In this document: piece by piece, positions 1,687-58,909 of the stretch | How positions within the stretch are numbered: position 1 is the first letter of the stretch | How the letters are laid out: the number at the start of each line of letters is the position of its first letter | Origin: Callorhinchus milii | Lineage: Eukaryota | Length of the DNA stretch: 64,000 nt | Direction: 5' to 3' | NCBI RefSeq assembly: GCF_018977255.1 | Contig: NW_024704749.1 | Span: 19,034,001-19,098,000, forward strand | The notes under the pieces: generated by a model | Told to the model about the DNA's origin: nothing | The model's database searches: none | Seen by the model: only the letters and a program-made list of their open reading frames with translations | Program-made: the position numbers and the translations under genes

Positions 1687-2513
1687 GGCAAGAGTTACCA
1701 GGCAATCAGACGGCAGAGGCGACAGACGGCTCCTTCAGCTCCGAGAGCAACTCCTGCAGACGTGGGCTGGATGCGGGCGGCTCTGACCCCGTCCCTACTC
1801 CCCCCTCCCCGGACGCAGGCTCGCCGCGGCACGAGGACTCTGATTATCTGCCCTCCCTCAAGCTGGCCTGCGTCCTGGCCTGTGTCTTCCTCTCCGTCAC
1901 TTTCCTGCTGGTTTCCAGCGGCACCAACAACACCATTAGCCGCTCGAGCCACGCCAACGCCAGCAAACAGAGGCTGTTTGGTCACAAACTCAACCGACTG
2001 AAGCTGTTGTTCCCATCGCAGTCTGACTCTCTCTGGGCGGAGCTAGAAAGTGCTCTGAATCGGCGTCTCCGGGACCAGGGGGATACCCTGCGAGCCCCCC
2101 TGATCGGAGTGGGAATGCGAGACGCCTGGAATACAATGCTCTGTCTGTCCAGGAACATTGTCGGCTTGTTACTGGGTGGCGGCAATGGGCTGACTCCCAA
2201 TATCACCAGTAAGGTGCTGCCTTACAGCAGCTCGGCTGTGGGGGTCAGGTCTCAGGGTATCGCTGTGGCTGTGATAGCAGAGAGTGCAGCAAAGCAGGGT
2301 TACTCAGTGCTGCTGGGGTCCCAGCCTCCTGCCCTCGTTGCCGTCCTGCCAGCCAGCATGGAGCAGGCAGAAGAGATCTTGCTCCATAACCTGACCTTGA
2401 GCGTTCTGACTGAGGTCCTGGGGCACATGAACCTATCTGGGCTGGCAGTGCTGCCAGCATCCCTCCTGGCTGTGAGAGCTGAGGACTATCTGGAGAGCGG
2501 ATTCGTTTGCTGA
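1687..2513 (+). CDS. Torsin-1A-interacting protein (LAP1/LULL1)-like type II membrane protein, main/last exon
   Basis: Ser/Pro/acidic N-terminal region, one TM segment (LACVLACVFLSVTFLLV), then LAP1C-like motifs LKLLFPSQSDSLW and TMLCLSRNIV, and C-terminal AVRAEDYLESGFVC*; acceptor cag at 1684-1686. Confidence 0.75.
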
Positions 2514-5261: not shown

Positions 5262-5957
5262 AGGCTCTGGGCTCCCGCTGGTGGCTGCTGCGTGCTGTGC
5301 GCCCAGCTGTGCCTGGCCGTGCTTGGTGCGGAGGGCACGGCGGCGGTGGGCGAGCGGAGCGGGGGCGCCTGCGGGGCCGGGCGGGCCTGCCACCCCACCT
5401 TCGAGGACCTGCTGCAGGAGCTGGAGTCCTTCCCGCGGCACCGCGGCGTCTCGGCCAACTCCACGTGCGGCCGGGAGCCCGAGCGGTACCGGAGGGGCGA
5501 GGAGCAGACGGAGACGTGCGACGCTTCGCGCCCTGACCTGCGCCATCCGCTCTCCTCCATCTGCGACGGCCTCAGTCGGAGGAGCGGTGCGGTCAGCCTG
5601 GGGGGCAGCTCGCTGGCTCTCGCCCACTCCTACCCTGACCTGGGCAGCTGGTGGCAGTCGGAGAGGGGCGTGTCGCCCGTCCACGTCCAACTCAGTCTAA
5701 CCCACCGCTTCCTGTTTGCCAGGACCGAGCTGGCCTTTGTCAGCCAGCGGCCCGACAGCCTGGTGCTGGAGGCCAGCGCCGACCAGGGCCACAGCTGGAA
5801 GGTCTGGCAGTACCTTGCTCATGACTGCTCGCTCTCCTTCCCCCACATCCCCACCCAGCCTGATCCCAGCCACTGGGACCCCACCGTGCCCCACTGCGAC
5901 CAGAGTTATTTTGCTCGGGAGACGTCTCTGCAGGGATCTCACTTACAATACCAGAGG
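5262..5957 (+). CDS. Laminin exon 2: signal peptide and most of a beta-type LN domain
   Basis: CGAGRACHP..DLL, SANSTCG, WWQSERGV.PV.VQL.L, RPDSLVLEASADQG.SWKVWQYLAHDC..SFP; acceptor ttgcag, donor gtaatg. Confidence 0.92.
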
Positions 5958-5967
5958 GTAATGTCCG

Positions 5968-6500
5968 CAACCGGGTGTCTGGCACGCGCGGAAACCCATC
6001 ACCGTCACCGGGCTCAAGAGTCTCCCCAATCAAACAGAGCTCCTTGTGTTCCAGCTACGTGTGGGGATTCCTGTGCACTGGAATGGAATGCGCATCCTCT
6101 CCCTGGAGAGACATGTCCTGCTTACCTAATTCCATAAGAGTATTAAGCACAGGCTGGCAAGGGCCAAGACTTGGGGACCATAGAGTGCGTGTTGGGGTAA
6201 CTGCTGGACGCTAACCAGCTAAAACAGTCATAGATCACCATCAATAGCACTGTCTGGTGGTTGTCCAGCTAGGAACACCCTACCTGTTAGGGATTTTACT
6301 TGAAGTGGTAACAGATGGTGAATGGGAAGAGTCTCTGCCCTGATTGACTGGTGAACTCTTCCAAATCCTACCAATGAACCAAGACCAGCTGCAGTGTCCT
6401 CAGCAGTGCCCTGGAGTACTGTGGACCCACCTGCCTCAGGCACTGGACTAGAGACCAGCTCAGAGGGTGGACTCGATCCTGATATTCCACTTCCATGAAT
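5968..6500 (+). mobile_element. Unclassified dispersed repeat (~500 bp)
   Basis: Shared motifs ccgggtgtctg..gaaacccatcacc, ggaatggaatgcgca and ggggtaactgctgga..ccagctaaaac recur near 10500-10810(-), 17155-17400, 25625-25920, 30660-31060 and 45650-46110(-). Confidence 0.7.
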
Positions 6501-7034
6501 ATCACTTTGGAGCTAGTTCAACCCTGAGGAGATCCTGCTTACCCCCCCCCCCTGCCCCACCCACCAAAAGCCTTCCCCGGGAGGGGACATTCCTCCGACG
6601 TGAAAGGCGCTATGCAAATGTAATTCTGTTGCTGTGGTCACAAATGGTCATTTGCAGGTTTGAGCCCTCACTGGGTGGACGGCAGGAACTTCCTGCGAGC
6701 TTCCAGAGGGTGAAAGATGTCATTGTGTTTCAGGGCAATGCCACGAGCTCTGCCTGCAGTTTCACTCTGCCTGAAGTGTAGTTTCGCTTCGCCTGTAGCA
6801 TCGCTCCACCTATAGTCCCGCACTGCCTGCATGCTCGCTCCCCCCTGAAATCCTGCCCCGCCTGTAGCCTCTCTCCGCCTGTAGTCTGGCCCTGCATGTA
6901 CTTGGTGCTTGGACCTGCCATTGCTGTGGCCTAGCTGCACGGAGTGTGTGTGTGTGTGTGTGTGTGGGTGTGTGTGTGTGTGGGTGTGTGGCTGGGGGTC
7001 TCAGGCTGATGCTCTCTGTCTCCTCACCGTCCAG

Positions 7035-7241
7035 GTGTTCTATAATGCAGCAGCCCGGCTGGGCGGGGCGTACCTGCGGAACGAGACGCTGTACCGGCAT
7101 TTCATCTTCACCGACTTGAGAATCACCTTCACCGGCTTCGGGGGCCGGGCTGCCGAGCTGCAGGATTACTACGCCGTGGCTGACTGGTCCGTCACCGGCC
7201 AGTGTGCCTGCTTCGGTCACTCCCACACGTGCAGCGGTCAA
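7035..7241 (+). CDS. Laminin exon 3: end of LN, start of LE1
   Basis: TDLRITFT...YYAVADWSVTGQCACFGH; ccag acceptor, gtcagt donor. Confidence 0.92.
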
Positions 7242-10147: not shown

Positions 10148-10388
10148 CCTGGAACCTGGAATCTATCTGCCGAGAGTGAGAGTGGGTGTGATGTATGTGA
10201 CTGTGACCTCGGGGGTGCGCACACACACCTGTGCTCAGCAGACACAGGCCAGTGTTCGTGCCGAGGCAACATTCAAGGGCGTCGATGCGATGCCCCACGG
10301 CCTATGTTCTTCATTCCCAGCCTGGACAGTCTGCACGCTAAGGCCGAGATCTTGACTGCTGATGCCAGCAAGGTTATTCACATTGCAG
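10148..10388 (+). CDS. Laminin exon 8: end of LE4, truncated LE5, start of LF (beta domain IV)
   Basis: CDCDLGGA...CSADTGQCSCRGNIQGRRC..P.FF.PSLD.L..KAE, the typical beta-chain LE5/LF junction; G|gtaagt. Confidence 0.92.
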
Positions 10389-10903
10389 GTAAGTGTCTGT
10401 AACTCTGGACCTGACTATCGTCCTGGGGAGGAGGGGTGGGTGGTGGGGCGGGGGGGGGGGGGGTGTTGGGTGGGAGGCAAGCGGGGACTCTTTGGCGCTG
10501 AACTGGCTCCAAGGTGACATGTTTTGCCACAGAATGTCAGGGTCAAGCCAACTCTCCGTGGAATCTCGCTAGTCCAGTTCCTGAGCCAGGTGGGCGCGCA
10601 GTATTCCAGGGCACTGCCAATGGTAGACTTCAGCAGTTACCCCCAACGCACACTCTGGAGTCCCCAAGCCTTGGAGTCGAGCCAACCTGAACCTAATACT
10701 TTCCGGAATTAGGTAAGCAGGATGCATCCCTCCAGCGGGAGAGAGCGAGAGAGAGAGAAAGTCTGCATTCCATTCCAATAAACGTCTCTGGAAATTTCAT
10801 GTGTCGGCGGGATGCATGGAATTCTCAGTTTGTGCCAGGCTGACATGATTGATGTGACTTCAAATCAACACTGTTGACAAGGACCCTCTTTCTTTCATTC
10901 CAG

Positions 10904-11025
10904 ATCCTATGGGATTGGCTTTGCACTCCGGCTCTGGAGTCCTGGAACTGGGAGAGAATGACGTAGTGAGAGCCAATCTCTCCGTGCCTCGGAGTCAGCA
11001 TTACCACATCATTGCTCGCTACTTG
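10904..11025 (+). CDS. Laminin exon 9: LF domain
   Basis: SGSGVLELGENDVVRANLSVPRSQHYHIIARY resembles beta LF; phases fit. Confidence 0.85.
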
Positions 11026-11459
11026 GTAAAGGCCATCAGCAGCCTGGGCTTCCTTCTAACAGCAGCGAACTCCATAACAACAATAACAATAGCAACAACA
11101 ACAACAATAATAACAACAATAATTAATAGTAACAATAATAAAATAACTTGGTCACTCAATCCACATCTATTTGTGGGACATTGCTGTGTGCAATTGACTG
11201 CCGTATTTATCCCACAAAATACACAGTTGATCCATTTTATAATATAATGCGTGTAGAATGGTTTGGAAGAGCCACGCGACTTTGAATCTAAAGTTCCCAA
11301 AGCTTTCCACTCCGATGGAGACTAATCCGTACAGAATTAATTGCTATCAACATCTCCATTATAGTAGCAGGCGACTAGTAGGATAGTAGAAGGCCGACAA
11401 GATGGATCAAGATCATTTTTGGTCTAGCAATTCCTATGTTCCTATGTTCTCTTTGGCAG

Positions 11460-11610
11460 AGCTCAAGCGCCTCGGGATTGGGAACACTGCGGATCAAAGG
11501 GCCGGACCTCATGGCTGGGTCGTGCCGCTCAAAGCCGGAACAGGAGACGGGAACAGCTGACGCTGTGACCACCTTGTACGCTCGTTTAGAGCAGAGTTTG
11601 AACCCATCAG
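11460..11610 (+). CDS. Laminin exon 10: LF domain
   Basis: ggcag acceptor, G|gtcagt donor; open frame with one Cys (GSCR). Confidence 0.8.
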
Positions 11611-12068
11611 GTCAGTCAGCCCTGTGTGTGGGCACAGTGAATGGACATGTGCACAAGGGTGCCCTCAAATTCGCGGGAATTTCTGTGTGTGGGTGGCACG
11701 CGTATGTGTAACTCTCAGTTCGGTTTGGACACTCTTAAGCGCAGTGATGGGTTTCCGCATGTGTCACACACCCGGCTGATCATAAGAAGTCCTAATCCCT
11801 CTTTTCTTGGACGCTCTAATCCCCTTCCTTCCTCGTATTCATGTCTCATTTGTGAAGTGCGCTATATAAATGCAAGTTGTTCTTGTTGTTGTTGTTGTAA
11901 TCTGAAACACATGCCTTTGTTTCCTCAAAACAGCCACAAACAGAAGTTCCCCAGCGTTTATCCTCTCAACCTCGCTTTGGGGTCTTAAACACCCCCATCG
12001 TGTCAACCCTCAACCTGCTCGGCTCAGATGGAAAGTGTCCTGACCTCAGTTACTCTCCTGTTTTACAG

Positions 12069-12181
12069 AAGCGGTTTCCTTCGGGGCAGTTTGCTTGAGG
12101 AGAGGCTCACTGTACAGGCTGTCGCTGGCCTACAAACCCTCAGGGACCATCGCCCCACAGCCTTCTTTACTCCTGGACACA
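12069..12181 (+). CDS. Laminin exon 11: LF domain
   Basis: AVSFGAVCLRRGSLYRLSL...LLLDT, similar to beta PVCFEKG.NY.V.L...LIDS; gtgagt donor. Confidence 0.85.
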
Positions 12182-12270
12182 GTGAGTTCCAAATCATTTC
12201 AAACAACTTGCTGACTGACACACATCTGTGGTCTGTTTTACCTGACCTGATCTCCCTTCTTTTCCTGCAG

Positions 12271-12451
12271 ATCCTCCTCCTACCCGACCTCCCGGCTCTA
12301 CGAGCTTACAGCGCCCTGCCCAGCCCCCAGCGCGCTCAGGCAGAGCATTGCCTCCAGGGTAGGTGGGCTCCAGGCCGGCAGAGACCGGGAGACGGGCAGT
12401 GCCAACCGCTGGAGTTCTCTATCATGGCGGAAGTGTACGATGGGGCACAAG
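12271..12451 (+). CDS. Laminin exon 12: end of LF domain
   Basis: ILLLP..C..CQPLEFSIMAEVYDGAQ; weak donor G|gttatt. Confidence 0.85.
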
Positions 12452-13718: not shown

Positions 13719-13859
13719 GGTGCGAGTGCCAGGCTGGCGGGGCGCTGAACCAGGCGTGTGATGGGCACAGTGGGCAGTGCGCCTGCAAGAGCAACGTGAC
13801 TGGACGGAGGTGCGACACCTGCGTCCAGGGATACCACGGCCTCGGTCGGGCCTCCACAG
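13719..13859 (+). CDS. Laminin exon 14: LE (Cys1-Cys7)
   Basis: CECQAGGALNQACDGHSGQCACKSNVTGRRCDTCVQGYHGLG; eighth Cys supplied by exon 16. Confidence 0.92.
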
Positions 13860-14225: not shown

Positions 14226-14348
14226 CTGGCTGTGCGGTAGCTGAGGGCGACAGGCTGGCATGTGGACCTCCCACCATCTCCGCTGTTGGGTGCCAGCTCC
14301 GGGGGTGCTGCTACGACAACACTTCAGGCTCGTGTTACTATTTTGGAG
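14226..14348 (+). CDS. Laminin exon 15: trefoil (P-type) domain
   Basis: CAVAEGDRLACGPPTISAVGCQLRGCCYDNTSGSCYY follows the trefoil pattern C..R..CG.P.I....C..RGCC.D....C.Y; tag / gtaatt, 123 nt, phase 1-1. Confidence 0.88.
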
Positions 14349-15155: not shown

Positions 15156-15279
15156 GGCTGGGCTGCCGCCCGTGTGCTTGTGACCTGGAATTCTCCGTGA
15201 ACAACACGTGCACTGAGACTGGGCAATGTGTGTGCAAAGCGGGGGTCACTGGGTTAAAGTGTACAGAGTGCTTACCCAG
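15156..15279 (+). CDS. Laminin exon 16: LE
   Basis: GLGCRPCACDLEFSVNNTCTETGQCVCKAGVTGLKCTECLP. Confidence 0.9.
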
Positions 15280-16625: not shown

Positions 16626-16842
16626 GATATTACGGGCTGGGACCCTGGGGTAGGGATGGCTGTATCCCTTGCTTCTGCTTCGGACACTCAACGAGCTGCA
16701 CCTCGGCTCCCGGCTTCACCCTGACCGCGGTCCGGCATCAACGCACCATCTTCAACCCCGAGGATCTCTTGAGCAGACCCTGGAAGGGAGTGGACGGCCA
16801 AGGGCGGGAGGTTGCAGTGACTGAACTGGCGGAACTGCCCAG
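16626..16842 (+). CDS. Laminin exon 18: LE and start of gamma-type L4 domain
   Basis: GYYGL..GCIPCFCFGHSTSCTSAPGF...WKGVDGQG, the gamma-chain style entry into L4. Confidence 0.92.
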
Positions 16843-17624
16843 GTACAACCACCAGGGGGCGATCCTAGCCATCGCCGGCTTCACCCACCGGGGCACGTTT
16901 TACTGGACGTGGAAACGTTCTTTCATCCTGAGGTTCAGGGCTTCGCAGCGTCGCTGAGAGAGAGTCTCGGAGAGAGGGAGCGGGAAAGAGAAACCAGGGA
17001 GGGAGGGAGGGAGGGAGCGAGAGAAAGAGGGGGAACGGGAAAGAGAAAAGGGGGAGAGAGAGAGAGAGAGAGAGAGAGCGAGTGAGAAAGACACAACGCA
17101 GGAGAGCGAGGGCGGGCGGGGGGGGTGGGGGGGTGGTAAAGAGGTAATTGAGAATCAGCCGGGAGTCGGGTGACACACGCGGACACCCGTGTGGAAGCCC
17201 GGAGATAGACTGTTGGAATGGAACGCGCGCAGGGACGCGTCCTGCTTACCTAATTCCGGGAAGTCTCAGGCGCAGGTTGACAAGAGCCAAAAGGCTTGAG
17301 GACCCCAGAGCGTGCGGGTTGGGGTAACTGCTGGAATCTCACCAGCTAACACCGCATAACTTGCCATTGATATTGCTGTCCGGCAAGCCTTCCCCCCCCC
17401 TGCTTCTCCGGCTGAGAACGTTAGAGCTGCTCGCGGAAGTACTGGAGCTCTCTAAATCTAATCCCGTTTCCTCCTCTCTCTCTCTCTCTCTCTCTCTCCC
17501 CATCGTGTCTGTGCTGGTCCTCGCTCCCCCCCGCCCCCCCCCCCCATTGGAGCTCTCTACTCTAATCCCATTCACTCAGCTCCTTGTGGGTGGAATACTA
17601 AGACGCTATGTTTGACATTTGCAG

Positions 17625-17749
17625 GTTTGTGTACCAGATACGCTCTGCTGACCCGGATGTGTTTTTTTCAGCTCCACCTGAGTTTTTAGGTGATAAAAGA
17701 ACCGCTTACCTGCAGCACCTGAGCTTCACACTCAGCCAGTCCCACACAG
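17625..17749 (+). CDS. Laminin exon 19: L4 domain
   Basis: VFFSAPPEFLGDKRTAYLQHLSFTL. Confidence 0.92.
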
Positions 17750-17974
17750 GTAGGACGTACACAGCCCTGAGCTCAGACCTCTATCCCAGGCTCCGAACCA
17801 AAGCCCCGAGCAAGAAGGGGATAGGGAGGTCACTGTAGACGTGGTAGTTCTTTTTAGGGGGGGATTTAAAGACGAATGGGGGGGGGTCGGGGCGGTGACA
17901 AGACTGAGGCGTGAATGTTCGGGGTTTACATGTCCGTGTGGGTTGTCCTGAGCTGCTCTGTCGTTTCTCCGCAG

Positions 17975-18087
17975 ACTCCCAAATGGTGTCGGAGGCTGGG
18001 GACGTGTTTCTAGAAGGACGGCTGCTGTCAGCGCCCCTGGTGACCCGTCTGCCCGAGACCCCGTCTGTCAATCCCACCGAGTACAGG
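17975..18087 (+). CDS. Laminin exon 20: L4 domain
   Basis: GDVFLEG...PSVNPTEYR|gtacgt. Confidence 0.88.
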
Positions 18088-18567
18088 GTACGTGCCCGGG
18101 GGTGAGGGGGGAGGAGGGTGGAGCAGGATGGGGGTGGGGGTGGGGGTGGGAGATACAAATCTCATCCAACACATTCACTGCATAAATCACACTAAAATCA
18201 ATTGGTTCAAAGTGACTCCGGACTGACTCCTATTTAATACCTAATAATAAAATTATCCTTATGTTTCCCATTGAGGCGATGTCCTTGCCTGGCAAGGTTC
18301 ACTGTTGAAGTGTAGTGACTGTGCGCTGCAGACTGTACTGCTATCTGAGCCTTTAAATCCATACAAATTGACAGCAAACAGCAACTTGTTGCTCAGAGAG
18401 CGCTACAGGGCATGGGCGCAGATAACCTACAAACACACAGTCACTTGACACCCATTCGCTGTGAATTGCTTTGAAAACATTGCGATGTTACAGGCAGAGA
18501 AAGGCTCATCGCTGCTGTTGGTGTCGACGGTGACGGCAGGTTCTGGCTCCTGTTTGTGTCTCCGCAG

Positions 18568-18693
18568 GTGAAGCTGGAGGACGGTGTGTGGTTCCTGGGG
18601 AGTGTGGCGCTGGGCACAGTGGCCAGCGCACAGCAGCTGATGAGAGTCCTGACCGAGATCAGCAGCATTAAAATTCGAGCCAAGTACAGCCAG
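18568..18693 (+). CDS. Laminin exon 21: L4 domain
   Basis: VKLEDGVW...LMRVLTEISSIKIRAKYS. Confidence 0.92.
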
Positions 18694-18841
18694 GTCAGAG
18701 CGATCGCACTCCTCCCTCTCCCTTACCCCACCCCACTGCCCCCCACGGGGTCTCCCCCCTCTTCTCTGAAGTCTCCACCCCTTCCCCCCCACCCCCTCCC
18801 ACCCCGGCTCTCGCTGTGTCTGATTCTGGTTTGATTGACAG

Positions 18842-18958
18842 GTGCCAGGGAGCTGGGTGGTCCTGCACTCGGCGGCGATCACCCTGGCAGCTCCTGGCAG
18901 CAACGCTTCACCTCCTGTGGGCATCGTGGAGCAATGTTCCTGCCCTGAGGAGTACACG
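18842..18958 (+). CDS. Laminin exon 22: end of L4, LE resumes
   Basis: ITLAAPG...VEQCSCPEEYT|gtgagc. Confidence 0.9.
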
Positions 18959-27018: not shown

Positions 27019-27158
27019 AGGATTTCCCCCGTTGTCACCCGTGTCCTGAGTGTTTTGTTCAGTGGAACCACACGCTCCGGGACCTGGGCTCTGAGTTGTT
27101 GCGGCTGTCAGGCACACTGCAGTCTGAGGCGCTAATTTACAGTGAGAATAACCCACAG
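27019..27158 (+). CDS. Laminin exon 29: last LE Cys, CxxC, start of coiled coil
   Basis: FPRCHPCPECFVQWNHTLRDL matches the beta-chain FP.C.PC..CF..W junction. Confidence 0.9.
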
Positions 27159-27548
27159 GTACGCATGCCCGCTCACACCCCACGGTGTCTTCCCCTCCCC
27201 ACCACGTCTTTCCCGGCCCCCTGGCACCTCCCTACCACTCTGATCTGTTCACTCCCCGACCCACTACCCACTGTCTCCGCTCGTCTGAATCTGGCCTCCC
27301 GCTTGTCCCTCGTTCGCGCCCTCCGTTCCACCATCAGTGGCCGCACTTTCACCCATTACTCCCCGGAACACTCTTCCTCTACCCCTCCACCTCGGTCCCA
27401 TCCTGTGAAGCGCTCGGGGACATCCTTCCGATGTGAAAGGCGCTGTCTCAAATGTAAGGTCGCGGGCGTGGTGAAAAATAAAGTGTGACCGGAGACGGGT
27501 GGTGGGGAGGGGGTGTGTTTGTAGCTTTGTTACTTTTCTCTTACGCAG

Positions 27549-27665
27549 AATCTCTCGCTGGAAGTGAGATCGGTGGTGAGCGAGTGGGAACGTGCCAGGC
27601 AGAGCCTGGGCAAAGAGCTGTTGGCAAGTTCAGCCTTCACAGCGATGGATGTATCTCTGAGCAAA
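27549..27665 (+). CDS. Laminin exon 30: coiled coil
   Basis: gcag / gtgggt, phase 0-0, helical NLSLEVRSVVSEWERARQSL. Confidence 0.75.
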
Positions 27666-28015
27666 GTGGGTATCACCTCCCGCCAGCTTCCCCCCCTCCT
27701 TTCCACCCCCACCGCCACCCCAACCCCCACCGGCTCGGGTTCAGCTCGCGCAGTAACACTGTAGGTGGGGGCTGTGGGTAAGGGTCAAAATTAAATCTTC
27801 CTTGGGGGGGGGTGTGGGGCGGTGGGGGACGGTGAAGGGGTCACGTGGGAGTTGAGCTGGCTCAGTGGTGACCTGCCTGACCACAAGATGTCAGAATCGA
27901 GCCCACCCTCCGTGACGGTCTCCGGTTCGGTTCCTGAACCAAACGGCTCCGCGGTGCTCCAGGGCAAGGGTTGACGACAGCACAGCGAGTCAATTTAACG
28001 TCTCCTGTGCCTCAG

Positions 28016-28572
28016 CTCTCCGCAGGTATCAGCAGGTGCTCCGGGCTGCTGGAGGAGAGCCGGCGAGAGCTGTCGTCGCAGAACGAGACCCTGCGGCAGC
28101 TGCTGCGGTTGGACCCAATTTCCAGCCTCGGCTCAAGCGACCTCTCTGGGCTGCGTGGGACCATCGACGGGTTCCTCGGCGCTGTGCGGCACCTCCGCAG
28201 CCAGGCCAACGCCACCGCGCAGCAGACCCGCCTGCACCTCTCTCGCTCGCGCTCCGCAGCGGCCCGCTCACACGCGCTGGCTGCAGAGAGCCGGACGCTG
28301 AGAGACGCCGCCGCTCGCAGCCTGAGCGCCCTTCGCTCCCTGCGGCAGGAGGCGGACGGTTGGACCTCCAGCGAAGCCGCAAGGACGTTACAGAGACAAG
28401 CCGCCCAGCTGGACACCCGGCTGGCGCAACTCCAGCCGGACCTGAGCCTCTTAAAGGGGCAGATCCACAATTGACCCTCGCTCGGGCCTTGGCAGACAGC
28501 CAGGTTCGCACGGCCGTCCTCGACACCACCAACAACCTGAGCCGAGTGTTGGAGGATTTACACCACGTTCAG
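28016..28572 (+). CDS. Laminin exon 31: coiled coil, with an apparent 1-nt frameshift at ~28471
   Basis: Heptad-like ORF to TGA at 28472-28474; helical sequence continues in another frame (LTLARALADSQVRTAVLDTTNNLSRVLEDLHHVQ) to donor gtgtgt. Confidence 0.75.
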
Positions 28573-28877
28573 GTGTGTCTGGAAGTAATGTTCTGCGTTC
28601 GCTTTCTCTCTCTCTCTCTCATCTCACGTCTCGTAAAGCTCTATAAGGCTCCCCATGAGATGTCTCAGCGCTCCCAGGCGCTATCCTGCGCGAAGAGGAT
28701 TATGTACACCCATGCTGTTGCTGTTTTCTAAGCGTCCTGTCGTACATAAGAGTTCCTCACAGTTCGTCTGATATCATTTACGTTCTATCAAGAGGGTTCC
28801 AGCACCTACCCCTTAGTGATATGATAAGGCGCAGAGGATTATATAAATGCAAGGATTATTATTATTATTATTTGCAG

Positions 28878-29056
28878 GAAACCCGGTTGCACCTGCGGCA
28901 TTCTCAGGAGCAGAGTGAGGAGTCGGGGCGGGCTGTGGGCGCTCTGGGTGCCCTGACAGAGAAGACGAGACGGGAGCTGGTTGCACACCTGGAGCAGCTG
29001 CAGCAGAAGCAGCGCAGGGCGGACTCAGTGCTGCAAGGGACTGAGTCGCTGCACCG
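28878..29056 (+). CDS. Laminin exon 32: coiled coil
   Basis: ETRLHLRHSQEQ...LEQLQQKQRRADSVLQ; ttgcag / gtgaga. Confidence 0.8.
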
Positions 29057-29648
29057 GTGAGAGGCGCAGGATTAGACCTCTCTGCTCTCTCCGCTTGGCG
29101 GGCACTGACCTGCTCCACCATCAGCAGTCAGGCATTCAGCCTTTCAACATCCACCTTCTACAACTCCATCAAACAGTCTCTCAGCCTCGCCTCCTCCTTT
29201 GCCTCCTTTAAGACCCACCTCAAGAACTCCCTGTTCGACCGTGCCTTCAGTCACTCTCCCTCCAACCGTAGCCCCCCCCACCCTCCTCCCCTTTCTGATC
29301 CCAACCTGCAGCTCGGGTGCAAACCCATCACTATCCAGTGCCTTGAGATGTGCTCCTGACGTGAAAGGCGCTGTGTAAATGTAAATTGTTGTTGCTCAAG
29401 GTCTTGCGAGACACTAGACGAGAGGTGGTTGGGGTTCAATATGTTCAGCAGGCGAGCGCTGGGGGGAGGGAAAGGAGGGGTGGGGGGGCGCTGACACTCA
29501 ACGCAGCAACATAAGCCAGAGCCATGAGTAGGGGGAAGATGAACCTGGAGATCCCAGGGCCCAGGTATACCAGATCACAGAGAGCCCAGGGTGTGTGGTT
29601 GGGGTTAGCTGGGCTCAGTGTGGAGCTGTCATACGTTTGTCATCTAAG

Positions 29649-29822
29649 TCTCTTGCAGGACACAACGTCCAGTCCCCCAGCAGCTCTGCAGAACATTCTG
29701 GAAGTCGTGGATGAGCTGACGGCAATGAGTGCCAGTGATGGTGATGTGACAGTGGCCAGGACAGAGGCTGAGGCTGGGCGTCAGGTGGCACAGAGCTCCC
29801 TGCACAGATCCACACAGGCTTT
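29649..29822 (+). CDS. Laminin exon 33: coiled coil
   Basis: SPPAALQNILEVVDELTAM...AEAGRQVAQ; needs the aag acceptor at 29646-29648 to keep phase; gtaagt donor. Confidence 0.7.
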
Positions 29823-32730
29823 GTAAGTCAGAGAGGGGGACATGAGGTGTCAGCCAGCGTTACCCTGATCCTAACTCTCTGCTCTTTCCCCGTCCGCACA
29901 TATCCCCTTCCCCCTGTATGCCTCTCTCATTCCTTTTAATTGCCCCAATTAGCTCTGCTCCAACAGCAACCCCTGGCAACTCATTCCGCCCTCTCTCTCT
30001 CTCTCTCTCTTTCCTTCGCTCCCTCTCTCTCCTCCACCCTCTCTCTCTCTCCTCGCTGTTGACAGTTGTGGGTTAGAACTCTGCCCGGCAATGTGACCAC
30101 GCACTAACAGCAGCACAGCACACTTACAAGTAATAATAATAGCAAAACCTATCCCAGTGCTTCGTGGAATCAAGTGTAGTGACTGGGCAAAACGCGGCAG
30201 CCAATTGTGCACAGCAGTGTCCCGCAATCAGTCATGGATTGAGTGACCCCAATTTTTTTTTAGAGACGTTATTACCTCTGGAAAGCAATCCGCCAATTGA
30301 CCTAACAACCGAGTTCCTACTTACTGCTACGTAAACAGAGGCAAGTAGTAAGGAAACTTGCCTAAGGTTTCGCCCTGTCTGGGAATCGAAGCTGGGTCTT
30401 CTCGCTTACGAAGCGAGCGCTCAGAAATGTGCCACAATGGGTAAGGAAGAGAGGAAAATCTTTCGTTGATTTATGCGACATTTCAGTGTGTCCAGAATTT
30501 GACAAATTCTCAGATATCAGTCATAATTTTAAAGCTGTTTTTCTGTAAGTTGTTATAAGTTCTTCGTCGCCAGCACTGAATTCAATAATTTGTCAAATTC
30601 CAGACACTCAGAGGCCTTAAATCTATATCCAGCTGGAATTTCTCCCTTATGATCCTTACATTACTGGCTGGGTGTGTGACACATGAGGAAACCCATCACT
30701 CGGCTTAAGAATCTCCAAACCAGACTGAGAGCACCACGTATGTTTGCCACCTGCACGTGGAAATTTCCCTGTGTCTGGAATGGAATGCGCACTCTCTCCC
30801 TAGAGGGATGCACCCGGTTTACTCGATTCCAGAAAGTATTAGGCACAGGATGGTAGGGGGTCAAGGCTTGGGGCCCCCAGAGTGTGTGGGGTAACCGGTG
30901 GAGTCCAACCAGCTGAAAACGCATAGCTTGCCATTGAGAGCACTGTCTGGGACACTTTCCTGCTGCTCGTCCAGGTAGGACCACCCTACCCGCTATGGCT
31001 TTGGCTTGCAGGGTTAGCAGGAGCTGAGTGGGAAGAATCCCTGCCCCGAATGACCCGCCATTCATACATGTTATTGGGAGCCCTGGGGAGCCTGCATCGG
31101 ACAGGTCTGTGTTGACCATATCCCTCTGAAATCCTGAACCCCCCCCACCCCATTAAAGCATCCCGAGCCCCTCCACCCCACCACCACCTGCTAGAGAATT
31201 GCTGCCCCTGTGACTGCGGTGCGCTGTGTTTTCTCTTGTGCACCTCGCAGGTCATGTCAGGATTGAGTGAACCTCACAGGAAAGCAGTTCGCCGGCTGGA
31301 GCAGTGAGGAAGTGGGTGTGAGGGACGCAGACGCTGGCTGGGGAGGGGGATGTACGGTGGGTGGGTGGGTGGGTGGGTGCGGTGGGGAGAGGGAGGAGGG
31401 AGGGGGAGAGATTTCAAGGTGTCAACCAAAACCCGCATTTTTTTTCGTACACCCCGATTCTGAAGGAATTCTACAATATGCTTTATACAGGACCTTTCGG
31501 GTCGAGAGGAAGTCTCAAAGAGCTTAATTCAGCGAGCAGACATACACACAGAGAGGTGCCCACTGCCGCCCAGAGTCCATTTCATTCTGATGTTTGGCGT
31601 CTCGCTCTCTCTCTCTCTCTCTCTCTCGGGTCGAATTACGTTCCCCAGATGCTGCTTAAAATGACCCCTGTGCAGCCAAACCACAGAGCCTGCCCCTCAG
31701 CCAAACCCACCGTGAATGGGCAGGGGCCGTGCAGCAAGCTGCGTCTCCTTGTAAAGTGTAGTATCATTTGAAGAGCAGTTATTTCATCCGTGCATTTGAT
31801 ATTGCGCCTTATCACGTCGTTGAGACTTCCCAAAGCGCTTCACGGAATCTATTGTAAAGTGGAGTGACTGTGTATTTTGTGGGTGAAACGCAGCAGCCAA
31901 AGGTGCACAACAGTGTCCCACAAACAGTCAGCATTGAGTGGACAGATTTTTTTTTGGAGGGATTATTACACCCGGAAAGCGACTTAACAACTAACTTACT
32001 GCTAGGTAAACAGTGCCTAACGTTTTGCCCCCCCCCACCCCGGGAATTGAACGCGGGTCCTCTCTGGTATCATTTGCAGAGCAAATATTAACTTACACAC
32101 AACACTGCGAGGCCCTTGGTCTCCGGGCCATGGATAAACTTAACGGGGAGCGACACCGAGTCGCTCTGCGTCACCTCCTGGCCTGTGGCTGCGGTGAGCG
32201 GGTGACGTGCCGCTGCTTTGCTTGGAAGCTTCTCCAGAAACGTAAGCTCGCGCGCGGCGAGTATTACATCTCCTGCCAGTCTGCACAATGCTTTGCGGTA
32301 GCACAATGAATTCTTTTGAGCAAACCGACCGCAGCCCACTAGTAAAACAAGCCCCTAACTATGTGGAGCAGAGCCCAGCCGGCTCCAGAATGTGGCAATT
32401 GATGCATTTTTTGATATTAAATAATGAGCAGAAAGGAAGAAGAATATCGTATTTTTCTTCTTGTCCGGTCAGTATTATAATATCAGGTACAACAGAGTGC
32501 GTCATCCATCATAGCAGACGTGTGTGTGTGTCTGTGTCTGTAGGGGTGGAGGTTCTTGCCCTGTGTTTGCACCAGACTGAGCACTACATTGATCGATCCT
32601 AAAGGCTGCTTAGTTTTAATGATAATCGTAATAATAATAATAATCCTTGCATTTGATGTAGCGCAAGGATTATTTGGTGATTGCAGGTATCAGACACCCG
32701 GCTAACCAGAAAAAAATCTTGATTTTGCAG

Positions 32731-32872
32731 GCTTGCAGCTCAAGGTGTTGTATCAGCGAGGCGAGACATGGAAACACAGACAGCGACTGTGAGGAGCGAG
32801 CTACAACGTGTACAAACCACACTGGAGCACATCGCACCACTGCTAGCGGTTTCTCAGAAGAGAGCCAGGCGT
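32731..32872 (+). CDS. Laminin exon 34: coiled coil
   Basis: LAAQGVVSARRDMETQTATVRSELQRVQTTLEHI; phase 2-0, gtaagt donor. Confidence 0.75.
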
Positions 32873-33516
32873 GTAAGTTAGTCGTTAGCTGTCGAGTGCC
32901 TTAATTTTGCACTCAAGAGAGCACATGGTGTAATAATAAATAATAATCCTTGCATTTGATATAGCACCTTGTCATGTTCTTCGGATGTCTCAAAATGCTT
33001 CACAGAATATAATGTAAAATTAATCGACTGTATATTTTGTGGGCAAAACGTGGCAGTCAATAATTGCGCGAAGCAATGTCTCACAAACAGTTGTGGATAG
33101 TGATTTTTTTTTTGAAGGAATTATAATCCCCCGGAAAGCGATCCACCAATTGACTTAACAATTGGGTTCCTACTTACCGCTCGGTAAACAGAAACGTGTG
33201 GAGTGAGGAAACTTGCCAAAGGTTTTGACCTGCCGGGGAATCGAACTTGGGTCCTCTGGCTTGTGAGGCGAGCATGTTAACTACTACGCTACAGGACCCA
33301 AGCGAGAATCGTCAGCTGTAGAGTGCTGGAAGAGTCCCCTACTCTCCCTACCCTCCATCCGCCCCCTGAACCCAGTCCCCTGCTCGAGTCCAAATCTCTG
33401 ACTGTCCAGCACCTCGGGATGTCCTTCCGAGGTGAAAGGCTCCATACAAATGTAATTTGTTGTTGTAATCTACACCTAACTCAATACTTACTTGATTGCT
33501 TTTATTTTGTTAACAG

Positions 33517-33681
33517 GAGGAGGAATTGCTAGAGATCAGACTGCAGGACGTTGCTGAGGTTGAGACGCTGGTGGCGGAGGTGGAGCGAGAGACTGAGTGC
33601 CACACCTCCCAGCGACTACAGCTGTCCCAGCTCCACACTCACCTGCTCAGCCTACACCAAGCACTGCAACATAATGTCCAG
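33517..33681 (+). CDS. Laminin exon 35: coiled coil
   Basis: EEELLEIRLQDVAEVETLVAEVERE...; aacag / gtaact. Confidence 0.78.
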
Positions 33682-35004
33682 GTAACTCCCCTCACTGCCC
33701 AGGTAACTACAGCCACTGCCCAGGTAACTCCCCTCGCTGCCCAGGTAACTGCAATCACCGGTGGAGATTAGTCCAGCACCACACCCTCTGGATTCCTGCA
33801 CTTCCTGTCCCGGAGCTCTTTCTAAGCAGCCTTTTGCATCACAGTTCTCTGTAGGAATGCTTGGCCCCATTCCCGGATTTGTTTTAAGGGATTTATTATT
33901 GTGCGGATTCCACGGTTACAACGTCTGTAGCGTCTTGGAAGCGAGTCCATTCGGAATGTCCTCCAGATGGTTAGGTGCCACTCGATACCTTCACACAAGT
34001 TGGACAGCCTCCTGTCTGACCAAGGCTGCCGCTCCGCACAGTGGGAGTGCTACACATACCTGTCAGGAGCATCTATTAAAGGCTGGAGTGAAGGCTGCAC
34101 ACACAGGAGCCTCTGACATATCACTGGCACAAAGCGATTGCACTCATTTAATTAGGAAACCACTTTGAGACTTTGCTGAATGGCAGGCCAGGCCTTCTGT
34201 CTATTGCAGTCTGTTTTGTAATGGTTTATATTATGGCTGGGATTCCGAGGAAGGGTGTTAAGAAGGTACTGGGAAAGAGCAGGGAAGTGAGGTTGGAGTA
34301 GTTAGCATTGATGGATTGGTACTTTTTAAACGGGGCGAAACCTTAGGCCTCTGTTTACCTAGTAGTAAGTAGGAACCCAGGTGTTAGTCAATTGGTGGAT
34401 CGCTTTTTGGGGTAATAATCTCTTAAAAAATATATAATAATTTGGTCAATCAATTCACGAATATTTGTGGGACACAGCTATGCGCTATTGGCTGCCGCGT
34501 TCTACCCACAAATTACAGTCAATCCACTTTACAATATATTCTGTGAAGTCCTTCGAGACGTCTCAGGATTGTGATAAGGCGCTATATCAAATGCAGGGAT
34601 TATTATTATTACTATTACCCAGCCATACACCTCTGTACTGGAATTTGTGCTGCTAAGACTGTAGCAGAATCTTAAAATTATGGCAGAAAAGTCATCATAA
34701 ATGATCTCCCACATAAATTGGTCACTTGCTTCTATTTGTGTGTGTGCGCAAATTGACTGTCGAGTTTGTCTACAATTAAACAGTCACTACACTTCACAGC
34801 ATCCGGGAATGGGGCAAGTGTTTTGATGTTACAGATACTGCAACAAATGCAAAGATTGTTATTATTAATAATAATAATAATGTGGTCTTACGGGCTAAGA
34901 CCAGGTGGAATTCTGGCCTCAATTCTCCTAATCGTTTGATTTGTTGCTTTGGAAAAGGGAAAGTTGCACAGAATAACTTTTCAGCCAAACTTGTGGTTTC
35001 ACAG

Positions 35005-35173
35005 AGGAGGAGAAACAGAAGTGGAGCAATGTCAGTGGCGGAGAGCTGTGTGGAGCAGGAGAGTCGGGTTACAGGCGCAGCCCTGGAGCGAGCTTCCCAA
35101 GCCCAGCGACGCATAGAGCAGCTGGCCCGAGCCCAGACCCAACTCACCCACAACACGCTGCAGGAACTGAGAG
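35005..35173 (+). CDS. Laminin exon 36: coiled coil
   Basis: ALERASQAQRRIEQLARAQTQLTHNTLQELR; acag / gtcggt. Confidence 0.8.
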
Positions 35174-35844
35174 GTCGGTAGTGTTTGAGCGCTCTGGGAC
35201 GCCAACCCTCCTCGCGGAGGGTGCCGTACATCTGCAGGTTGTTGTTGTTGTGGTGCTGAACGTCCGGCGTTTCGACTATTTCTGAGCGACCAGTTCGGGA
35301 GAATCACCGGTTTCTTTGCGAAAGGTTTAAATCTTAAAACAAATCTTGGGGAAAAAAAACAAACAGAAAAAATAATAATTTGGTCACTCGACCCGCTGCT
35401 GTCCGTTTGTGGGACACTGCTGTGCGCAATGGGCTGCCTCGTTGCGCCCGCAAAATATACAATCAATTCCATTTGGAATGTATTCTGTGAAACGCTTTGA
35501 GACATCTTGAAGACGTGATAGGGCGCTATATCAAATGCAAGGATTATTATTATTATTGAGGACTACAGTAGAGCCCTGTTATAAGATAAGCGCTGGGGTC
35601 TATAAAATGACAACCCGCCTTATTCGACTGTATTCCACTCACCTGTTGAAAATACCTGCGTTTATGGCTTCGGATTAAATATCCAGTGTAGCTCCTTTTG
35701 TATGTCTCCAAGCAATTGCTCCCCACTGAATACTCCATTCCCCTGCACTTCTCCCCACTCCACGTGCCATTCCCCTGCACCACTCCCCGCTGCACATACT
35801 ACCCCTGCCGTGGCCACCCCTGGTCTCTCTGCCTGTTGTTCCAG

Positions 35845-35975
35845 AGGTCCTTCAAGTCTTTAGGAAACAAGAGGAAGCTCTGAGTTCGCTGGAGAAGAGA
35901 GTCACCAGATTGCAGGAGCAGCAGGGCCACTTACTGGCCGGTTTCCAGCAGGCAGAACCACCGGCCTGTAACTGA
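35845..35975 (+). CDS. Laminin terminal exon
   Basis: FRKQEEALSSLEKRVTRLQEQQ...PACN*; penultimate Cys as in beta chains. Confidence 0.82.
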
Positions 35976-37688: not shown

Positions 37689-37835
37689 TCAGGCGCAGCA
37701 GCAGAGGGTGCAGCAGCTGAGCTTCATCGGGTTGCCTCCGCCTGTGCCCTGGGAGTTAGTTTTCGGCAGCAGCAGGATGAAGGAGGCGGCCAGGCTGCAG
37801 TGGTAGAAGCTGTGCACGTAGCTGTAATCCCATTC
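37689..37835 (-). CDS. MYMK: Myomaker exon 5 (terminal)
   Basis: EWDYSYVHSFYHCSLAASFILLLPK...KLSCCTLCCCA*. Confidence 0.96.
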   Translation of the reverse strand, partial: EWDYSYVHSFYHCSLAASFILLLPKTNSQGTGGGNPMKLSCCTLCCCA

Positions 37836-38258
37836 CTGCAAAGCAAAGAGCGAGTGTCTGCGCTGGCAACTCAGTCACGGCCCGCTGTAGCACTACCCGT
37901 CTGTCAGCGATGCTCGCCTGCTCTTAATTATGTCACCGACAACCTTTGCTAATTCCTTCTTGTTGTGACGGTTAATTTAATTGTTAACGTCCTGGCCATC
38001 AATGCTCCAAATCAAACTGGTCATTTGCCCACAAAATACAAGTCAATCCACTTTACAATATATTCTGTGAAGCGCTTTGAGACGTGATCAGCCGCTATAT
38101 CAGATGATAGGATTATTATTATTATTAGAGGAGGGCAGGGATGAGGAGGCGTCTGCGTGATGCTGTATGTGGACACTTGTGTACCGCTGTGTGCACAGAG
38201 GGAAATCTGATGCTATGTTTTACCGGGAGTGGAGTGGTGGGAATAGGGTGAGACGTAC

Positions 38259-38375
38259 CTGGAAGAAGAAACGCAGCATTAGAGCCAGCGCCCCAAAGCA
38301 GCAGCCAGGTCCAATCTGCTGTGTGTACACACTCTTATCCGGGTACAGCCCTCTCTTTTCTTTCATCTTCTTTAG
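38259..38375 (-). CDS. MYMK: Myomaker exon 4
   Basis: LKKMKEKRGLYPDKSVYTQQIGPGCCFGALALMLRFFFQ, 117 nt. Confidence 0.96.
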
Positions 38376-40089
38376 CTAAAAAACAAGAGATGATTTTGTA
38401 GATTAATGTTGAAATAATCCTTGCATTTTTATATAGCAAATTTTATCATCATGTGATCGAGATACCTCAGAGCGCTTCACAGGACTTGACTGTAGAGTAT
38501 AGTGACTACGTGTATTTTGTCGGCAAACTCAATTGCCAGTGTGTGCCTAGCAATGTCCCACAAACAGCCATGGATTGAGTGACCAATTTTACCCGGGGGG
38601 TGGTTGGCCAGGACACTGGGAGAGAGAAACTCCCTTCTCCTTTCAAATCGTGCCATGTGGTCATTAAAATCCACCTGAAGAGCTGGACGGCATCTCAGTT
38701 TAACATTTTATCCGAAGGACAGCACCTCTGACATTGCAGCGCTGCCAGCCTAGACTATGAGCTCAAAGTCCCAATGTGGGACTTGAACCCACAACCTTGA
38801 CTCCGAAGCGAGAGTGCTGCCTTTCGAGCCTAACTGCACGATTGAAGTAGAAGGTCTGAAATTACACTCGGTATTAGCCTGCAGGGTCATTTTGTCTGTC
38901 TAAAATGCAAATTTGTGGAAAATCCCGGCTGAATTTGGAAACTGTTGTGCTGGAGTTCTTAAAGAATTACCAGCAACCAAATTAGGACTGAATTTTAATC
39001 TGTAAATGAAAACAGTCTCACAGGCTAAGACTAGGTGGAATTTCGAATCCCCCTTGTTTTCTCCACGTCATTGAAAACCTTATTTCATCTGATCTACTTT
39101 CCGCTGGCAGACAAGCGTTAGGATGTGGAAGCTTCGAGCAGTGTCTCCTTTGCGTCTGCCGCTCGTGAGTTCCACTCGGTGTGGCCAACCTCCAAGAAAA
39201 GCAGGTTGTTTTCATTGTGAAGTGTGAGTGACGCTGTCGGCGGCTCAGTGAGTGATAGCACCTCGCAAGCGAGGGGACCCGGGTTCAATCCCCAGGAGGG
39301 GCGAAACCGTAGGCAAGTTTCCTTATTCCTCGGAGTCAAAAGGTTTTGGGTTCAAGCCCCATGTCGAGACTTTGAGCTCAGTCTAGAAAATGACAGTGCG
39401 CCACCACGTGGCAGCACGTGGTTATTGTTCACATTCCCCCACTGAGTTGGGCAAGAAGTCACTGTGCAGAGTGTGGGGAGGGAAGGTCCAGAGGAGGTGT
39501 GTATTTGGATTGGGGAAGAGGGCTGGAGAGATAATGGTTTGCGTGGGATGTTGGAACAGACTGTAAAAATACACCATTCTAGAACCCAGGAGGATGGCAG
39601 ACCCAAATAGGGCTGAGAACATGGCTTGTTGAGTTTTGTTTCCCAGTTTTCTGAGAAACAGAGATGCAGATACAGAGATTAAGTACAGACACAGACAGAC
39701 ATACTTAGAGGTACACACACAAAAAGATGTACACACCTACATAAACACAGATATATACACACAGATACGTAGATACACACACAAGATGAAGATCACATGA
39801 GAGGTTTGGATGAAGAAGGCCTTTTGGTCCATTTGATCTCATCCTCACAGAATATCTACTATTGTACCCATTGTAGCATTAAGCTGTTTTTTTTAAATGA
39901 GTCCAGTGTCCTGATCTCAAACAACATAGACATAGTAAGAGATGCATAGAGATAAACACAGAGATTGAGACAGAGTCAGACACAGAGCAGCTATTCTGTA
40001 CTGTATTCTTTGATCACATCTTGCATGTGCAGGAATCTGAAGATGAGAGACTTGATACACACACACACGACATAGATAAAATCACGTAC

Positions 40090-40238
40090 AAACTTCACTG
40101 TGATCATGAAGACAGCTGTTCCAATCGGACCCGAGTAAACTCCGTAGCCCCATCGGTTTTGATAAATCCGCACATTCAGTGTCAGAATTCCAAACATAAC
40201 CAGCGTTGACCGTCTGGGCTCCTCAAATTCTGCTAAAG
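40090..40238 (-). CDS. MYMK: Myomaker exon 3
   Basis: LAEFEEPRRSTLVMFGILT..RWGYGVYSGPIGTAV, 149 nt. Confidence 0.96.
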
Positions 40239-40342
40239 CTGATTGGAAAACAGCACATTAATTCCCGTAGCTCAGACTGTGTATGCAATCACCCAGGCAC
40301 TCAGTTCCATCACTATTATGTGCCAGGACCTCGGGTACTTAC

Positions 40343-40457
40343 CTATTAAGGTGACCCACATGGACAGGGCAGTGCCGTAAACGCTGAAATATTCCAGGAT
40401 CTCGTATCTCATGATACAGAGCACGGAGAACCCCGGTCCCTCACATGCATGGAAAAA
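40343..40457 (-). CDS. MYMK: Myomaker exon 2
   Basis: FFHACEGPGFSVLCIMRYEILEYFSVYGTALSMWVTLI, 115 nt. Confidence 0.96.
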
Positions 40458-40627
40458 CTGAAACACAAAACACAGCTCGGTTTTAGCAGAGACACAAAGT
40501 CAGAAACACCATCTCTCCCACTGACAATCTGATAGCCAACTCATCCGAGCATCGACTTTATAACTAAGTAAAGTCTGTCTCCAACATCCCATCAGAGTCT
40601 GCCTCTATCAACATATGTGTCAGTCTC

Positions 40628-40882
40628 TTATCACCTTATGCGTCTGTCTCAATCACCTTATGCGTCTGTCTGTATTACCTTATGCGTCTGTCTCTATTAC
40701 CTTATGCGTCTGTCTCTATTACCTTATGCGTCTGTCTCTATTACCTTATGCGTCTGTCTCTATTACCTTATGCGTCTGTCTCTATTACCTTATGCGTCTG
40801 TCTCTATTACCTTATGCGTCTGTCTCTATTACCTTATGCGTCTGTCTCTATTACCTTATGCGTCTGTCTCTACCACCTTAAG
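40628..40882. repeat. 22-bp minisatellite in MYMK intron 1
   Basis: Tandem ttaccttatgcgtctgtctcta units. Confidence 0.92.
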
Positions 40883-41263
40883 CATCTTAGTCTTTATCAC
40901 CATATGTGTCTGTCTCTATCATTGTGTGCATTTCTTCCGGTATCCCGGCTGAAAATCCCCCAATACAAAAATTGATTGTTCACTTCCTGAATGTTTGTGA
41001 GACATTGTTGTTGGCAAATTGGCTGCCGCGTTCACTTAAGAATACACAGTCACTCCATTTTACAATCCTCTCGATATGAAAAGTGCTCTATCAAATGTAA
41101 GGATTATTATTATTATCACTCTGTGTGTCTGTCTCACTGATTCTTTGGTTTTCTGTCTCCACCTCCGTGTCTGTCTCCGCTCTGTGTTTGTCTCCACCTC
41201 TGAGTATCTATCTCCTGGAGGGAAAGCTCTGAAATGTTGTGTGATGTCCCAGTCGTTTCTCAC

Positions 41264-41398
41264 CGCTATGAAGAACATGGTGAAGAAGTAGACCATGGCC
41301 TCCATGTGGAAGCCCCGCCGGGCCGCGATGGTGATGGTCGGCAGGAAGACCAGGCTGCTGAGAGTTGGGAGAAGGAGTTTGGCGATGGCGGCTCCCAT
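41264..41398 (-). CDS. MYMK: Myomaker (TMEM8C) first coding exon
   Basis: MGAAIAKLLLPTLSSLVFLPTITIAARRGFHMEAMVYFFTMFFIA; the five exons total 663 nt = 220 aa plus stop. Confidence 0.96.
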
Positions 41399-41499
41399 CT
41401 GAAGGACATGAAATCAACAGCTCCAAGAAATCACATCCAGCACGTTTAAAGGTCCCGTTCATCTGGGTTAATGGTTTGAAACATGCTGCATGGCTGCTG

Positions 41500-47140: not shown

Positions 47141-47374
47141 CGATGGTTCTCTGTCTGTCTGTCTCTTGAGTGTCCTTTACTCCCCTCATCCTCACCCCCT
47201 CACCCCCTCCCCCTTATAAGTGCAATTCGCTCCTCGAGTTGAGTGAACGAGGAACGTCGCGATCCTGGAGCTAAATATTGGTACAAACGTGTGTGTACCG
47301 GTACTTAAACACACTCTGAAATACAGTGAGAATGTCATAGGCGAATTGTGTTATATGTGTGAAAGACACTGTAC

Positions 47375-58697: not shown

Positions 58698-58785
58698 GTT
58701 GTGAATGTAATCGCAATACACATTCCTTTTGTCAGTCCTGCGAATACTGTGACCGCTCCTGATACATACCATCTCTGCCCTGCAG

Positions 58786-58909
58786 CCCATTGGATGCGAT
58801 GGGGTGCTCTTTTCCACCCAAACGTTGGATAAGTGTGGCGTGTGTGAGGGCAATGGGAGCAGCTGTATACGGATTACCGGCAACTACAGGAAAGGAGCAT
58901 CTCAACTGG
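58786..58909 (+). CDS. ADAMTSL2: ADAMTSL2 exon 7
   Basis: [34 protein letters not shown]. Confidence 0.95.

Follow-up and report, generated by a model that had tools for sequence, protein, structure and literature searches.

A trefoil exon inside the seventh LE module of a predicted laminin beta/gamma-like gene in Callorhinchus milii

A 123-nt exon encoding six Cys lies between two laminin exons in the genome of Callorhinchus milii, which raises the questions of whether it is a genuine trefoil (P-type) domain, what kind of laminin carries it, where it came from and what it could do there. The exon is located at 14226..14348 (+) of the window, by which we mean the whole 64,000-nucleotide stretch of contig NW_024704749.1 that was analysed; it is exon 15 of the gene model described below. 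It is symmetric in phase 1-1, is bordered by a TAG acceptor and a GTAATT donor, and encodes the peptide GCAVAEGDRLACGPPTISAVGCQLRGCCYDNTSGSCYYFG. The coordinates, phases and translation agree with the original prediction, which had been made from the sequence alone and had proposed a trefoil domain on the basis of the Cys spacing. The HMMER comparison suggested there as a check matched the exon to Pfam Trefoil PF00088 with 42 bits (E 8.6e-11, profile positions 1-42 of 43), against a curated cut-off of 21 bits, and the six Cys (C2, C12, C22, C27, C28 and C36) were invariant in 5/5 aligned trefoils. Exon 15 thus encodes a trefoil domain. It contains one N-glycosylation sequon (NTS), which falls within a shortened loop 3.

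A phmmer search of exon 15 against PDB sequences returned TFF3, TFF2 and TFF1 (E 5e-5 to 6e-4), and an AlphaFold2 model built from a 5-row alignment reached a pLDDT of 80.6. The top Foldseek match of this 40-residue model was the trefoil of fish ZP1 (8rki_C; TMq 0.82, rmsd 0.7 A, prob 1.00, E 0.031), and the best 21 of 24 matches were trefoil-bearing protein chains, with 0/24 at E<=0.001. As a pseudo-exon control, 23,811 bp of the other introns of the gene were scanned, where one open symmetric phase-1 candidate with splice scores as good as those of exon 15 was found and none with six Cys. The trefoil exon is present as a single copy.

The host gene was modelled from 4687 to 35975 on the plus strand, to which all of its features belong, with 37 exons and a product of 2101 aa in which one frame offset is read through with X. 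Its introns comprise 35 of GT-AG type and one of GC-AG type, the GC donor (CAG/GCAAGA) being at window position 23528 after exon 24. The domain order is a signal-peptide-like leader, LN, LE1-5, LF, LE6-9, L4 inside LE10, more LEs and a coiled coil, without LG. Exons 2-3 (5262..7241) encode the hydrophobic leader and the LN domain, which matched Pfam Laminin_N with 96 bits; a structure model of the LN exon from the single sequence had a pLDDT of 33.9. Exons 8-12 (10148..12358) encode a truncated LE5 and a divergent LF (laminin IV type B), to which a canonical-beta profile gave 18 bits (E 8e-7); Pfam LF had no match when exons 8-12 were searched singly. Exons 18-22 (16626..18958) encode an L4 (laminin IV type A) inside an LE, two exons of which matched Pfam Laminin_B with 27.2 and 21.7 bits (cut-off 22.4). 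Exons 29-37 (27019..35975) encode a coiled coil of ~580 aa with a family-conserved Cys at its end; the tail of the chain, AEPPACN, has this Cys and no Glu in its last five residues. Two alternatives were discarded during modelling, namely a candidate exon at 31251-31303, which is out of phase, and an exon-18 donor at 16932, which was dropped for 16842 as the latter suits the length of the relatives.

When profiles were built from the relatives alone, excluding the window row, LN (25 relatives; 199 bits, vs 153 for LAMB1), LF (77 bits) and L4 (168 bits) of the host chain each scored highest of 9 test chains. The coil, with 36 bits, was third of 9, below LAMB1 (56) and LAMB2 (55). The chain keeps 138/139 of the family-conserved Cys and 94/107 of the other conserved columns. 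The database holds near-identical Callorhinchus milii fragments of this gene, A0A4W3J7S8 (named 'P-type domain protein') and A0A4W3IY84 (named 'Netrin 5'; 99% identity over the LN query), both of which are partial models with intron-derived sequence; the public entries among the matches returned (P0002-P0004) are all fragments, and none of these matches is full length.

The trefoil had been placed in the last loop of an LE module, and this placement holds. Exon 14 (13719..13859), whose translation closes with ...HGLGRAST and whose end is in phase 1, provides Cys1-7 of LE7, the second LE downstream of LF; exon 16 (15156..15279) starts with (G)LGC, which carries Cys8 of LE7, and continues with most of LE8. 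Both flanks match EGF_laminin. The insert therefore separates Cys7 from Cys8 in the seventh LE module, within the loop named d in the accessible text of PMC5338690, and all eight LE Cys are kept. The same text describes an aromatic residue of loop d that packs onto the next LE, and LE7 retains such a residue, a Tyr, ahead of the insert; the LE rod should hence run on unbroken, the trefoil projecting from its side as a knob. This arrangement would resemble that of LF and L4 in laminin short arms, which are globular domains carried on an LE array that is left intact (PMC5338690 and PMC6744579, as far as their available text goes). It differs from both in detail, since L4 is inserted between Cys3 and Cys4 and LF follows an LE without the 7-8 bond, whereas the trefoil-bearing LE7 keeps its full set of Cys. 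A trefoil in loop d would represent a third way of hanging a domain on an LE rod.

As to the class of the host, which the original prediction had missed, the chain appears to be a laminin beta/gamma-like chain and not an ordinary vertebrate laminin chain. It combines LN, LF and L4 on one chain with a coiled coil and without LG, which is the beta/gamma-like architecture; the class label follows from this architecture and from the part of PMC3516229 available to us. The model aligned end-to-end with ambulacrarian chains (Ptychodera, Anneissia, Acanthaster) over ~2050 aa at ~31-33% identity with ~970-1040 bits, the top score being 1036, against ~450 bits for the best-scoring beta-type chains shown. 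In a representative search an Acanthaster chain ranked first after the fragments of the species itself, among the matches listed, and a profile search, whose alignment query was dominated by its Acanthaster first row, returned chains with LN, LF and L4 from echinoderms, hemichordates, annelids, brachiopods, molluscs and cnidarians. Trees were built from rows hand-picked from ~290 fetched proteins to cover each class. In the LN+3LE tree (60 rows) the window gene and 7 ambulacrarian chains were sister groups (95/90) nested in a clade of bilaterian chains (100/98), the row of the window gene having a long branch (1.3) and an atypical composition; the L4 tree (38 rows) gave the same sister position with 99/93 and further supports of 97/91 and 100/98. 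In AU tests, grouping with 13 beta chains was rejected (p 0.010), as was grouping with netrin-G (p 1.5e-7). The gamma chains, several of whose rows were classed by architecture, formed their own clade (100/98) in the LN+3LE tree.

An identity as laminin beta (LAMB1/2/4) was rejected on the presence of L4 and on the AU test against the beta grouping, and an identity as laminin gamma on the presence of LF, the separate gamma clade and the lack of a Glu near the C-terminus (for which see the available text of PMC6744579). Moreover, the genome also holds LAMB1-like (exons 58-89% identical to bird LAMB1), LAMB2-like and gamma-like loci, so the host gene is an additional one. Like the beta/gamma-like chains of Acanthaster planci (XP_022106047, P0021), Ptychodera flava (P0179), Lingula (XP_023930665) and Lottia (XP_009065469), it is colinear in the order LN, LE, LF, LE, L4, LE and coiled coil, lacks LG, is ~2100 aa long and ends with the terminal Cys. 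Unlike them, it has a longer branch, a more divergent coil and a trefoil, and it occurs in a jawed vertebrate, although the consulted portion of PMC3516229 (citing Fahey and Degnan 2012) places the class in eumetazoans except ecdysozoans, urochordates and vertebrates.

Concerning the origin of the insert, extra sequence in loop d of LE7 was found in 0/28 aligned relatives, and a trefoil profile run over 305 fetched proteins detected only the domain of the window itself (P0001, P0002). The genome yielded six trefoil matches including exon 15; of the others, two lie in genes that we take to be glucosidase-like, a partial one is likewise regarded as glucosidase-like, another follows a signal peptide, and the last belongs to a gene that also encodes ZP-N and ZP-C. 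Among the four genome trefoils compared with exon 15, that of the ZP-N/ZP-C gene was the nearest (48% identity, vs 27-38% for the three others), and its exon is in phase 1-1 too. The two exons encode the same residue at 19/40 codons, with dS 1.4 and dN 0.53, an estimate from 40 codons only in which both lineages are mixed. In a neutral simulation, 0.55% of 20,000 draws at 0.2 substitutions per site kept the six Cys, the frame and both splice sites together; the share was 6.1% at 0.1 and 0.1% at 0.3. The rarity of such survival, together with the dS and dN values, points to an old insertion that is probably under constraint. The exon-shuffling origin by a symmetric exon that had been put forward is supported by the lack of an insert in the relatives and by the phase of the ZP-type exon, and the likeliest donor would be a trefoil of ZP1/ZP4 type (ZPB, choriogenin H; PDB 8rki/8bqu), which is the closest of the paralogues compared in the genome, is encoded by a phase 1-1 exon and gave the best structural match. 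The likeness is confined to the domain: no ZP-N/ZP-C module stands behind the laminin trefoil, which is flanked by LE exons and nested in a disulfide loop of another module, and intron sequence common to the two loci consists of repeat-like matches only. The trefoil after a signal peptide (L005; G000:C2:121171846-121171969, -) starts with Arg-Lys-Pro-Cys, has no Trp before its last Cys, and belongs to a TFF-like gene that likewise lacks the lectin residues treated below.

Several explanations compete with a working or recent laminin that carries a non-lectin trefoil. The original prediction had read the domain as a potential lectin module of the laminin short arm; a TFF-like lectin that ties this arm to mucin-type glycans has in its favour a predicted fold like that of TFF1 and TFF3 and their six-Cys spacing, the TFFs being the best PDB sequence matches. 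Binding in TFF3 is partly via the backbone, and other trefoils may bind sugars, such as the GAA trefoil with isomaltose, according to the available text of PMC7221086. The same text names Asp20 and Trp47 as the only TFF3 side chains that contact the sugar, and reports barely detectable mucin binding for D20A and none for W47A. In exon 15 the equivalent of Asp20, before the second Cys, is Ala, and that of Trp47, before the sixth Cys, is Ser; the absence of the Trp had been noticed earlier, and that of the Asp/Asn comes in addition. The laminin trefoil furthermore differs from TFF1-3 in not being a free peptide, it lacks the residues corresponding to Asp20/Asn14 and Trp47/Trp41, and its shortened loop 3 bears the N-glycan sequon. 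A TFF-like reading is thus unsupported by these residues; exon 15 is predicted not to be a TFF-type GlcNAc-alpha-1,4-Gal lectin, and we consider the tie to mucin-type glycans very unlikely. The trefoil of fish ZP1 is without both sugar-binding residues as well and protrudes from the filament, as stated in the accessible part of bioRxiv 10.1101/2023.06.21.544075. By this analogy, the trefoil, if included, would rather serve for protein contact or spacing; binding of some other glycan seems a less likely role, and a TFF-like one an improbable role. Another explanation takes the host itself as a vertebrate gene recently fused from a LAMB front and a LAMC or LAMA L4 segment, or as an assembly join, since LF and L4 are not known together from any vertebrate beta or gamma chain and one database fragment is named 'Netrin 5'. 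This is hardly credible, because the LN and L4 trees independently group the host with invertebrate beta/gamma-like chains, the AU test rejects the beta grouping, and colinearity with the relatives extends over ~2050 aa.

A further possibility is a functional laminin with a passenger trefoil exon, which would be spliced in rarely if ever or would belong to a distinct nested gene. The acceptor of exon 15 has the second lowest score of 36 and is the only TAG, although CAG at every other acceptor biases this score; the skip form 13859/15156 has an open frame and gives a normal complete LE, and UniRef A0A4W3J7S8 presents the trefoil as a stand-alone 88-aa protein. That 88-aa model, however, is a patchwork of intron-frame sequence and laminin sequence read out of frame, from which the sixth Cys is missing, and the joint preservation of Cys, frame and both splice sites would be improbable under neutral decay. 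Moreover, loop d of the skip form is 3 residues longer than that of most relatives, as if the linkers had adapted to the insert. We regard the passenger reading as improbable; some or all transcripts of the gene, be it working or recent, very probably include exon 15. The weak acceptor and the open skip form make the skippable cassette proposed earlier plausible, with the reservation on the acceptor score just given. The remaining explanation is that of a recent pseudogene, or a gene yielding only a truncated chain, in which the trefoil-bearing laminin worked in an ancestor and no longer does. In exon 31 as assembled, the frame is off by one base at a run of G (28455..28460), so that a stop falls at codon 1757, and a second phase conflict lies between exons 32 and 33 (29056..29673), where the exon 32 donor, next to a GG, is in phase 2 and the acceptor at 29659 in phase 0. 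The latter acceptor scores 6.8, against -11.7 for the in-phase one at 29673, and no convincing missing exon or alternative donor was found; the coil is divergent, the public entries are fragments only, and no vertebrate orthologue appeared among the matches listed. Against this, each offset lacks a single base at a G run, a typical consensus error of long reads, and this suggests errors of the assembly consensus. With 44 G/C runs of at least four bases in the coding exons, the coincidence of the offsets with G runs is modest evidence. The first 5.2 kb of coding sequence is free of stops and shifts, the exons past the offsets are open with the terminal Cys retained, and nearly all family Cys are kept. 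The pseudogene reading is accordingly unlikely, if less so than the passenger one, and judging from the sequence the gene is probably intact today.

The explanation that we prefer as a whole, with moderate confidence, is a working or recent, vertically inherited beta/gamma-like laminin with a ZP-type trefoil knob. The gene, working or very recently working, would have come down by vertical descent from ancestors among the invertebrate deuterostomes and persisted in the holocephalan lineage, and a symmetric phase 1-1 exon of ZP1/ZP4 type would have entered loop d of LE7 after the split from echinoderms and hemichordates. The chain would be secreted and use its coiled coil to join a laminin trimer, where it would most likely take the beta position, in keeping with a terminal Cys without a terminal Glu (available text of PMC6744579). 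The Cys7-Cys8 bond of LE7 would close around the trefoil, leaving the LE rod continuous by analogy with the LF and L4 inserts. The knob would not bind GlcNAc-alpha-1,4-Gal as TFFs do, and would most likely offer a protein-contact or spacing surface like the trefoil of ZP1/ZP4, possibly as an optional cassette. The strongest form of this proposal, that a fourth class of laminin chain is still produced in a living jawed vertebrate, with a splice-switched, egg-coat-derived trefoil as a new binding site on the short arm, is more doubtful. If the preferred explanation is true, the loss of beta/gamma-like chains moves from the base of the vertebrates to later, lineage-specific events. Furthermore, co-expression of this vertebrate chain with the alpha, beta and gamma chains of mammals could address which trimer position the class takes and whether it polymerises, for which we found no answer in the literature consulted.

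No vertebrate orthologue of the host gene was found among 18 matches, among the best 120 of 828 or among the best 150 of 1809 (19 of these 150 being named); the first of these searches, like the one that gave A0A4W3J7S8, covered entries of <=2000 aa only, so that a 2100-aa chain is outside its scope. The atlas matches comprised generic LN and trefoil clusters only, and a metagenome scan with 97 pattern matches yielded a single locus, whose match of 21 residues was judged to be chance. The laminin-trefoil architecture was absent among the 305 fetched proteins, and neither it nor a vertebrate beta/gamma-like chain was found in the literature searched, although the supplement of PMC3516229 may list relevant taxa. 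The supplement file of PMC3964593 contains neither 'laminin' nor 'trefoil', and genes may be present there by ID only; the available text of PMC5560861, PMC5395295, PMC11260871, PMC12749355 and PMC12549020 added nothing on the beta/gamma-like class.

Netrin-G has been described as derived from beta/gamma-like laminins (PMC3516229 and PMC10084454, in the text available). In the LN+3LE tree the beta/gamma-like architecture fell into two sets, that of the window gene and one that joins netrin-G (100/97). Despite their published derivation from this class, and although one netrin-G-like locus is ~2.4 Mb from the window gene on the same contig (C8), Netrin-G1/G2 group with the second set (Acanthaster XP_022106018, Ptychodera XP_070532358) and not with the host gene. 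Two netrin-G-like LN exons of this genome, L007 (G000:C8:21469157-21469789) and L008 (G000:C5:13694469-13695104), join the second set (P0073, P0105, P0078). The class thus appears to hold two paralogous sets, of which only the first appears at full length in this genome, and linkage of both sets is suggested in Acanthaster and in Ptychodera. Other divergent laminin-like loci were observed, namely L011-L016 (G000:C1:79.74-79.80 Mb), with LE and L4-like exons and no clear best class, and L017 (G000:C19:3.314-3.324 Mb), with a beta-type LN that is 41-49% identical to LAMB chains. A hagfish chain (Myxine glutinosa P0022) of 3843 aa is a beta-type laminin with 36 LE matches and ~2x the usual length.

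Other features were noted in and around the window. A long C-rich low-complexity repeat at 47341-48498 is open in several frames and is probably non-coding. Just upstream of the laminin, an open frame at 1830-2510 (+) with a transmembrane stretch matched Pfam LAP1_C weakly, below the cut-off (20.1 bits, cut-off 26.8; E 4e-4), and may be a divergent TOR1AIP/LULL1-like gene. Tail to tail with the laminin lies a gene at 37692-41531 (-) with a DUF3522 match of 29.6 bits, which we take to be myomaker-like, and an ADAMTS cysteine-rich exon at 58753-58941 (+; 19.7 bits) presumably belongs to a gene resembling ADAMTSL2. Upstream of the window, L006 (G000:C8:19024001-19034000, -) carries exons that we assume to be MRPS2-like. 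MRPS2, myomaker and ADAMTSL2 all lie in the human 9q34 region, so these neighbours can serve as anchors for locating the gene in other vertebrates.
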